DNA from: a virus
Taxonomy: Duplodnaviria > Heunggongvirae > Uroviricota > Caudoviricetes
IMG/VR virus record: IMGVR_UViG_2693429582_000026
Length of the DNA: 15,498 bases
Reading direction: 5' to 3' (one strand)
Positions within the stretch are counted from its first letter, which is position 1. Each line of letters opens with the position of its first letter. Below, in pieces: positions 708-1,303 of this stretch. The notes below the pieces were generated by a model, which had not been told where the DNA came from, did no database searches, and saw only the letters and a list, made by a program, of their open reading frames with translations. The position numbers and the translations under genes were made by a program.

Positions 708-875
708 TCAAGCATTATGCAGGCTGTTTCTTTTTATCACCGGCCACAGCAATACCACAATGCCGCAGACCAGCACCCCATCCGCCAGCACCGACATGAT
801 TCTGCTGGTGAAATCCACCATCACCACCAGAAACAGCAGGAGTGCAGCCACAGCCAGGCGCAGTTTTACCGTCAC
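708..875 (-). CDS. Small predicted 2-TM membrane protein (55 aa from GTG; 37 aa from the internal ATG), translationally coupled to the upstream TerB-like gene
   Basis: Not in the ORF track (under 60 aa). GTG at 875..873 overlaps the TerB-like stop (GTGA), with GGAG 8 nt upstream. Translation (M)TVKLRLAVAALLLFLVVMVDFTSRIMSVLADGVLVCGIVVLLWPVIKRNSLHNA has two hydrophobic segments. Followed by the terminator at 513-542. Confidence 0.4.
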   Translation of the reverse strand: MTVKLRLAVAALLLFLVVMVDFTSRIMSVLADGVLVCGIVVLLWPVIKRNSLHNA

Positions 876-1303
876 AGGTGATTCTCCAGACGAAGACCCA
901 GAACACCGGCAATCTCTTCCAGCACCTTGCGCTCTTCCGGCTCAATTTCGCCGTCTGCCTCCGCAATGGCCACCGCCACATCCAGCACATCTTCCGCTTC
1001 ACGCGTATCGTGTTTCACATCCTCAATCTCGCGTAACGCGGCACGACGACCAATTTTAAAATTGGTATCCAGCTGACCGATAATGGTTGCGCTAATCGCA
1101 TTAATTTCCGAGGTAAACGCAGACAACGCAGGCTGATTACGTAAGACCTGTTCGATCTTCGCTTTCTCGGATGCCTCGCATTCACCATCTGCATAGGCCA
1201 CCAGGTATGCAGCGTTAATCACCGCCTGTGCCAGATCGCGTTTCTCAAACTTTTTAATTTCCGCTGCCGCTCTGCGGGTTTTCTTTTTGAAGATTCCAAA
1301 CAT
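872..1303 (-). CDS. TerB-like (tellurite-resistance TerB family) protein, 143 aa; cargo gene in the position Stx phages use for stxAB
   Basis: ATG at 1303..1301 with AAAGGA RBS; the track ORF 872..1375 trimmed to this start. Sequence MFGIFKKKTRRAAAEIKKFEKRDLAQAVINAAYLVAYADGECEASEKAKIEQVL...VAVAIAEADGEIEPEERKVLEEIAGVLGL shows the two-repeat A-x-ADG...E-x-EK pattern I associate with TerB domains. Confidence 0.6.
   Translation of the reverse strand: MFGIFKKKTRRAAAEIKKFEKRDLAQAVINAAYLVAYADGECEASEKAKIEQVLRNQPALSAFTSEINAISATIIGQLDTNFKIGRRAALREIEDVKHDTREAEDVLDVAVAIAEADGEIEPEERKVLEEIAGVLGLRLENHL

Follow-up and report, generated by a model that had tools for sequence, protein, structure and literature searches.

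Phage P1 (NC_005856) carries a TerB-family gene, an overlapping DUF3927 gene and a third small gene, which were named tciA, tciB and tciC by homology only, in an annotation that reportedly goes back to Lobocka et al. in 2004. All three genes are non-essential by CRISPR interference (PMC10695390), in one P1 subgroup of P1-like plasmids, close to half have lost tciABC (PMC9603915), and no experimental study of tciAB function was found in the literature. In Shiga toxin (Stx) phages, Tree et al. (2014) described a slot composed of Q, pR′, a moron coding sequence (CDS), convergent small RNAs (sRNAs) and a conserved open reading frame (ORF) (PMC4104026). Here we analysed a 15,498-nucleotide viral sequence (IMG/VR record IMGVR_UViG_2693429582_000026; the whole stretch is hereafter called the window), in which this slot is occupied by a tciA-tciB pair (708-1303) preceded by a structured leader RNA (1304-1430). 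The window is a lambdoid prophage adjoining dsdC in Escherichia coli O103 strain ML775 and matches NZ_CP193495 at 100%; all late-region features are on the minus strand unless stated otherwise.

The gene pair is the already known, annotated phage tciA/tciB cassette of P1 nomenclature. The first gene, tciA (872-1303), encodes a 143-aa TerB-family protein (PF05099, PHROG 632), and the second, tciB (708-875), a 55-aa DUF3927 membrane protein (PF13064, PHROG 1470); both are annotated in RefSeq for strain ML775. As in P1, the genes overlap and tRNA genes lie next to the pair, with 42% identity for TciA and approximately 58% for TciB. Unlike the window, P1 possesses tciC, controls the genes through the C1-repressed ban operon and has no structured leader, whereas the pair of the window is located in a Q-dependent late region behind such a leader. 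No equivalent of tciC, whose P1 product belongs to no Pfam family, was found downstream of tciB, where the single ORF (31 aa, 620-715, minus strand) lies almost wholly inside the sRNA STnc100.

The phages JLK-2012 (O55:H7), PPyecE_EH1910 and Evi share leader, tciA and tciB with the window at 90-97% nucleotide identity; in each of them, the cassette occupies the same slot, with Q or tRNAs on one side and an esterase or holin gene on the other. The genes are labelled tciA/tciB in JLK-2012 and "TciA/TerB-like" in PPyecE_EH1910. These loci differ from the window in having other upstream tRNAs (Asn-Thr-Gly in JLK-2012) or none and other Q types, and Evi has no esterase gene. Among 5426 complete E. 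coli genomes, 786 (about 1 in 7) contain the 861-bp region over 80% or more of its length. As a common annotated accessory module of phages, the gene pair itself changes little; what is added here are the exact boundaries of the cassette, the occurrence of leader, tciA and tciB as one mobile unit that is present in virulent phages as well, and a family of structured leaders.

Comparison with Stx phages defined the boundaries of the cassette. Homology to an Stx2a phage covers positions 193-692 and 1425-2800 of the window (97%), with stx2AB in between, and homology to an Stx1a prophage covers positions 1-688 and 1878-2800, again with stxAB in between. These breakpoints (approximately 692/1425 and 688/1878, respectively) delimit a swapped cassette of approximately 693-1424 that consists of leader, tciA and tciB. 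As judged from these alignments, the tciAB cassette is an exact allelic alternative to stxAB in the moron slot following Q. The initial annotation had recognized the Stx-phage architecture of Q, three tRNAs, cargo and esterase and had placed the cargo in the stxAB slot; the homology on both sides bears this out, and there is no stx-like ORF in the window. In common with the slot of Tree et al. (PMC4104026), the locus has Q, pR′, a cargo CDS, convergent sRNAs of the STnc100 and AgvB/AsxR types and an esterase gene, with flanks that are 75-97% identical; unlike in Stx phages, where stxAB has a promoter of its own, the cargo of the window is tciAB behind a leader of its own. We considered STnc100 as a further part of the cassette and rejected it, because this sRNA also follows stx2 (PMC12370729) and is not found next to tciAB in most other genera, the exceptions being an E. 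coli-like locus (L011) and an Enterobacter locus (L032). The STnc100/AgvB pair thus belongs to the frame of the slot and not to the cassette.

TciA matches the TerB profile PF05099 with 60.2 bits (cut-off 24.4, E = 2.9e-16) over profile positions 2-109 of 118, as the initial annotation had anticipated, and PHROG 632 with 1.7e-69. Its similarity to the Klebsiella pneumoniae TerB structure 2JXU, a component of the terZABCDE operon, extends over residues 14-137 and hence nearly the full length (phmmer, 4.4e-8). The two proteins share domain, size and the acidic DG motif, but their identity is low, and TciA has no terC/D/E/Z partners, its partner being the 55-aa DUF3927 protein. No terZ/A/C/D/E-like genes were found within the window or the 27-kb annotated region. 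An AlphaFold2 model built with 19 homologues is all-helical (pLDDT 88), and Foldseek hits of this model gave moderate support (2h5n, probability 1.0, TM-score 0.54-0.64; 2ou3, probability 0.75). The most conserved residues of TciA are two duplicated acidic DG...E motifs, ADGECEASE (38-46) and ADGEIEPEE (116-124), in which D39 and G40 are nearly invariant and D117, G118, E46 and E124 are invariant in both alignments (A1 and A2). The only NCBIfam match was a sub-threshold hit to DjlA (positions 112-164, E = 1e-6, 28.6 versus 162 bits). The N-terminal region of DjlA combines a transmembrane (TM) anchor with a TerB-like domain, and a comparable placement of the domain at the inner membrane would apply to TciA; unlike DjlA, TciA has no J domain, and its putative anchor is a separate polypeptide.

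The GTG start codon of tciB (875-873) overlaps the TGA stop codon of tciA (874-872) as GTGA and is preceded by a GGAG Shine-Dalgarno sequence (SD) 8 nt upstream. The protein matches PF13064 with 62.3 bits (cut-off 25, E = 4.3e-17) and PHROG 1470 ("TciB-like") with 4e-30. It is strongly hydrophobic (grand average of hydropathy 1.43), with hydropathy peaks at residues ~13-15 and 38-39, DFTSR between them and positive charge at both ends. The initial annotation had called this coupled ORF with two TM segments unannotated; overlap, SD and hydropathy were confirmed, whereas Pfam, PHROG, RefSeq and GenBank entries for it exist. TciB copies of P1, N4-like phages, 434, Fostie and JLK align without gaps, with K4, DFTS, DG.LV and WP..K conserved; 6 phages and upwards of 20 species retain DFTS and DG.LV. 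Relative to the window copy, dN/dS of tciB is 0.11-0.43, at saturated dS. The notion that the ORF is a chance hydrophobic frame or part of an STnc100 promoter region could be based on its shortness, its GTG start and a -10-like CATAAT (714-719) in its last codons. Because of the gapless conservation from P1 to N4-like phages, the dN/dS values and the recurrence at this coupled position across 26-28 of the 32 species, in addition to the DUF3927 match, we regard the ORF as a real, selected protein; the chance that it is not a gene is negligible, and at the level of sequence evolution that notion is already refuted. Both tciA and tciB are under purifying selection.

A TerB gene with an overlapping DUF3927 gene was found by tblastn and annotation in P1, in the N4-like phage Pollock, in Fostie, in Klebsiella phages, in an Actinobacillus phage and in Erwinia jumbo phages, and the pair is present in the jumbo phage ChrisDB; Pollock, Fostie and ChrisDB have their copies annotated as tciA/tciB. 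The Pantoea copies, too, are located between Q and a lysozyme gene. With one genome per species, we collected 33 loci with a TciA relative at 34-99% identity, 32 of which could be evaluated. A DUF3927 ORF overlaps the tciA stop codon in 26 of these 32, which agrees with the initial expectation that the small ORF is conserved in homologous loci; the others comprise two loci with a divergent two-segment ORF, two with a different coupled ORF with one TM segment, and two without any. Across unrelated phages, leader, tciA and tciB are co-inherited as one mobile unit.

In Pseudomonas juntendi (L024, 4441-4644) and a Paracoccus metagenome-assembled genome (L036, 4398-4604), the coupled partner has one N-terminal TM segment followed by C..YGY...KP.VGC.VKT, which suggests that the membrane partners of TerB are exchangeable. 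None of the alternative partners (the 247-aa membrane protein of 434, P1 TciC and the coupled proteins with one TM segment) matched a Pfam family. In two rare database proteins, P0124 and P0186, a frameshift at the overlap joins TerB and DUF3927 into a single ORF. Sequencing errors or mutations are the probable cause, but the entries show that one step suffices to create a fusion. In unrelated phages, tciAB repeatedly lies beside phage tRNA genes (window 1473-1724; L001, L005, L012, L023, L034 and L127), namely Ile-Arg-Arg in the window, Asn-Thr-Gly in JLK-2012, Asn-Thr ... Ile in P1, Trp-Cys in ChrisDB and Ser or Met-Ser-Gln in others. This proximity may mean that the two have an accessory hot spot in common or that they are functionally linked.

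The leader of approximately 125 nt is conserved beyond the protein that follows it: across genera, hardly any variation is seen in the 135 nt that separate the terminator from the tciA ATG, and the leader is kept even where TciA identity is only 42-45%. Its 5′ end forms the hairpin P0 (1414-1429), followed by the long-range helix P1, which pairs 1399-1406 with 1351-1358 (CCACAGAG with CUCUGUGG). A second helix, P2, pairs 1382-1390 with 1322-1330 (GGGUGAGCC with GGCUCACCC) and crosses P1, resulting in a pseudoknot; in relatives, P2 comprises 10-12 bp. The 3′ strand of P2 ends 4-5 nt before the SD (1311-1317). The hairpin P3 occupies 1359-1375, and an alternative pairing, P4, can form between UCAG (1391-1394) and CUGA (1336-1339).

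Covariation supports the pseudoknot. In the alignment of 32 tciA leaders, 93.8% of the cells pair and 11 of 28 base pairs change on both sides, compared with 2.9 in shuffles and 1-5 in slid controls. When 69 distinct leaders were aligned, 88.8% of the cells pair and 17 of 26 pairs change on both sides, compared with 7.5 ± 1.4 pairs in shuffles (0/500) and 4-9 in slid controls. All five pairs of P0 and seven of the eight pairs of P1 covary among the 69 leaders; because P0 and P1 were part of the covariance model, these counts lean towards the model. P2 was not included in the covariance model, yet it is seen as a helix of 10-12 bp in no fewer than eight sequence versions, such as GAAUGAGUCUC with GAGACUUAUUC. 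P4 covaries as well (A-U versus G-C), and because it is sterically incompatible with P2, the leader may adopt two alternative states. Furthermore, the stretch from the SD to the AUG is complementary to the 3′ arm or the loop of P3, with a mean match of 5.16 nt versus 3.52 nt in shuffles, and the two sides vary together (GUCAC/GUGAC, ACCGAU/AUCGGU, GAUCAC/GUGAUC and AACCCA/UGGGUU).

Other interpretations of this segment were tried and discarded. A fully nested rod, the minimum free energy fold (z = -2.4), has less support than the pseudoknot, with 5 two-sided pair changes versus 3.3 in shuffles; its long helix is 83% paired, and only the P4 segment covaries. A coding sequence is contradicted by indels that are not multiples of three and by strand-specific G-U pairs. 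For the integration host factor (IHF) consensus (WATCAANNNNTTR), direct reading of the leader yielded just a partial ATCAA that is not conserved. Rfam searches gave no match at gathering scores and, when relaxed to E ≤ 10, nothing beyond noise and partial terminator-like hits, and no published description of the leader RNA was found in the literature searched.

Two variable positions were noted among the leaders. The G-run at the 5′ end of P2 (equivalent to ~1388-1392; phage Evi, L003, and L072) varies from G4-5 to G11 (GGGGGGGGGGGAGCC), and the U of GGGUGAGC is replaced by G in about 10 sequences. This variation may be due to slippage, a possibly phase-variable tract or sequencing error.

The leader also precedes genes other than tciA. 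Covariance-model matches were located in front of ant in the Stx phages VT2-Sakai and ST2-8624, of Rha in P22-like Salmonella phages, of a KilA-N gene in an Actinobacillus phage and of tciA in the jumbo phage ChrisDB, and an ant-type leader is present in the prophage of the window itself, just outside the window. Copies of the leader lie at 23917-24067 of the host record (L004), 1493-1644 of L125, 1466-1613 of L126, 1456-1613 of L128 and 1352-1501 of L127. By blastn, the tciA-type leader occurs in 41 phage records and the ant-type leader in 291, and a pattern scan of viral contigs returned TerB, KilA-N, P22_AR_N, Rha, ANT and HNH_3 as the cargo clusters behind it. No leader-like element precedes stx in the stx cassettes that were compared. 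The leader outweighs the gene pair in importance, being a covariation-supported pseudoknot that is absent from Rfam and is found before ant in most Stx1 and Stx2 phages and before rha in P22-like phages; it would offer a new way into the control of cargo and antirepressor genes in late operons and bears on prophage cross-induction in enterohaemorrhagic E. coli. IHF control of rha was reportedly described by Henthorn and Friedman in 1995, and as a lead only, the special control of rha expression noted long ago in P22/phi80 might have its basis in the leader.

We read the leader as a portable cis-regulatory element that would gate the translation of cargo genes embedded in late operons. In this respect, it resembles pseudoknotted translational operators and riboswitch-like leaders, in which a pseudoknot abuts the SD and alternative conserved pairings exist. 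On the whole, we favour, if with some reserve, the interpretation that tciAB, as a known cassette, constitutes a membrane-tethered TerB module that is expressed during lytic growth under the control of a leader RNA. A wider proposal, which we put forward only tentatively, is that the leader represents an undescribed class of cis-acting phage RNA with two states (P1/P2 versus P4), in which the arm of P3 can mask the start-codon region; such an RNA would serve as a portable adaptor that plugs potentially harmful cargo into the terminator-insulated, Q-dependent late operons of enterobacterial phages, with TciA-TciB as a membrane-tethered TerB sensor in lytic growth.

Regarding expression, a consensus scan of positions 1-2800 revealed no sigma-70-like site between the tRNAs and tciA, and manual inspection revealed no conserved -35/-10 elements in the leader. 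The suggestion of the initial annotation that the cassette might have its own promoter therefore finds no support; a conserved structured 5′ leader directly follows the terminator instead. Because no promoter was detected and two terminators are located upstream, we infer that transcription is mainly due to Q-modified RNA polymerase starting at pR′. Strictly virulent phages of the N4-like and jumbo types carry the module, the P1 copy lies within the C1-repressed ban operon, and the lambdoid copy follows pR′/tR′ and a second terminator; together, these settings predict expression during lytic development. In the mechanism that we propose, induction would lead Q-modified RNA polymerase to transcribe the cassette from pR′, the leader would either gate translation of the mRNA or act in its processing, and TciB would tether TciA at the inner face of the cytoplasmic membrane, where the TerB domain would serve as a binding site for a cation or small ligand. 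In this way, TciAB would condition the envelope or the ion homeostasis of infected cells, a dispensable advantage in the lytic cycle and not tellurite resistance in the lysogenic state. TerB-domain proteins are believed to function at the inner membrane face, and a soluble TerB domain would most simply be tethered there by a coupled partner with two TM segments.

Several observations weigh against this interpretation. The interaction between TciA and TciB is deduced solely from the coupling of their genes, and AlphaFold2 predicted the natural frameshift fusion P0124 with a pLDDT of only 41. The phages 434 and 2B8 have tciB without a TerB gene, and two Marinomonas loci have tciA without any small membrane ORF; because of these exceptions, the partnership appears to be usual and not obligatory. 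Neither the P1 copy nor the N4-like copies of tciAB have the leader, which thus is not required for TciAB function. The crude consensus scan could have missed a weak or non-sigma-70 promoter. Finally, the prophage contains pseudogenes, namely a frameshifted replication protein O, a DNA polymerase III theta gene with an internal stop and a truncated Rad52-like gene (host record L004, 6198-6777 and 12202-13073), together with a truncated DNA methylase gene (window 1765-1878). The prophage may be defective and perhaps unable to complete lytic growth, and because of the frameshifted replication gene, late expression in ML775 is an assumption.

With respect to what TciAB does, the full-length TerB homology, the existing names and PHROG label "tellurite resistance", which were given by homology only, and the lysogen-benefit cargo (stx, AgvB) that occupies the same slot elsewhere would fit a stress cargo of lysogenic conversion, expressed in the lysogen and protecting it against tellurite, oxidative or metal stress in the manner of a ter operon. 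TerB is one of several ter genes, however, and as no other ter gene accompanies tciA and the settings of the module are lytic, this idea is weakened. In addition, the cassette is positioned behind terminators without a detectable promoter, the strictly virulent N4-like and jumbo phages that carry the module form no lysogens, which favours a role in infection over a benefit for the lysogen, and the P1-like plasmids without tciABC mentioned above (PMC9603915) count against it as well. We consider such a function improbable, and functional tests are redirected from the tellurite resistance of lysogens to membrane physiology in lytic growth. A membrane-anchored TerB module could alternatively block the entry of other phages or colicins, and exclusion proteins are encoded by virulent phages, too. 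TciB as a membrane partner and the moron position fit superinfection exclusion, colicin resistance or an anti-phage role, and ter operons have been reported to inhibit phages and to confer colicin resistance (PMC9603915). On the other hand, PADLOC defence models gave no match above noise (for TciA, the best E was 0.0035, to a candidate model; for TciB, there was nothing), no reported phenotype of this kind for tciAB was found in the literature, and the lambdoid position predicts late expression, which is ill suited to the protection of a lysogen. This explanation is doubtful, if slightly less so than a stress function in the lysogen.

For the leader, the alternative to a translational gate is an RNA-processing element, either self-cleaving or a target of an RNase, that excises the cargo mRNA from the long late transcript. 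The order of helices (P1a-P2a-P3 hairpin-P1b-...-P2b) corresponds to a nested pseudoknot topology like that of hepatitis delta virus (HDV)-like ribozymes, with P1 and P2 covarying; several copies directly follow tRNA genes, P0 would remain as the 3′ hairpin of the upstream product, and hammerhead ribozymes are known to flank single prophage genes (PMC3088659). Inspection of the core features nevertheless speaks against HDV-like nested double pseudoknots: the first P1 pair is C-G or unpaired and not G-U, P3 has 4-10 bp and a non-conserved loop in place of a 3-bp P3 with a conserved L3, and the segment before P2′, which in HDV contains the catalytic C in J4/2, pairs within the P2 helix of 10-12 bp. 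No Rfam ribozyme family matches even at E ≤ 10, and membership in the hammerhead and HDV-like classes was rejected on these grounds. Because the core features are lacking, HDV-like processing is the weaker of the two explanations for the leader, and the complementarity to the start-codon region, which covaries, argues for control at the level of translation. Processing in any form appears unlikely, although we would give it somewhat more credence than an exclusion function of TciAB, and translational gating by the leader is preferred.

The remaining features of the late region frame the cassette. Q (2166-2600; Phage_antitermQ, PF06530, E = 1.3e-51, and RefSeq annotation) is followed just downstream by a pR′-like promoter (2151-2178) and a tR′-like terminator (2101-2120), which were located by the consensus scan and assigned by homology and inference; this region is 97% identical to Stx2a phages. 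Beyond the truncated DNA methylase gene lie a tRNA with the anticodon CAT (1649-1724, labelled tRNA-Ile in RefSeq), tRNA Arg-TCG (1563-1639) and tRNA Arg-TCT (1473-1549). The tRNA cluster is followed by an intrinsic terminator (1441-1460) directly 5′ of the leader, which is common to Stx2a phages. On the other side, STnc100 (510-703; Rfam RF02076, 142.7 bits) starts 5 nt past the tciB stop codon and ends in a terminator at 521-542. The initial annotation had described the pair as bracketed by terminators; both hairpins are present, but the second one, which it had placed at 513-542, is the terminator of STnc100. Convergent with STnc100, the anti-GcvB sRNA AgvB is encoded on the plus strand (448-509; RF02702, 96.5 bits; PMC4104026) and ends in a plus-strand hairpin at 484-503. 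The 5′ part of a DUF1737/SASA (NanS-p-like) esterase gene occupies 1-300 (PF08410, 6.7e-17; "SASA family carbohydrate esterase" in RefSeq).

Because the -10-like CATAAT lies inside the last codons of tciB on the minus strand, just ahead of STnc100, two origins of this sRNA are conceivable: it may have its own promoter at 714-719 or be a 3′-UTR product of tciAB. Between AgvB and the start of the esterase gene (300-447, minus strand), we noted a terminator-like hairpin at 402-423 and a 12-bp inverted repeat at approximately 345-388 (GGGCUGUAGUCC...GGACUACAGCCC), 40 nt ahead of the esterase ATG. Rfam gave no match here; a PasD/STnc100-like element or a leader of the esterase gene would be conceivable. 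Farther away, a P22AR-C antirepressor gene (4186-4920) is preceded by Rfam matches at 4973-5171 (minus strand) to C4 antisense RNA, to the a1/b1 targets of this RNA and to IsrK; gene and matches together look like a P1/P7-type immI (c4-ant) module within the lambdoid prophage.

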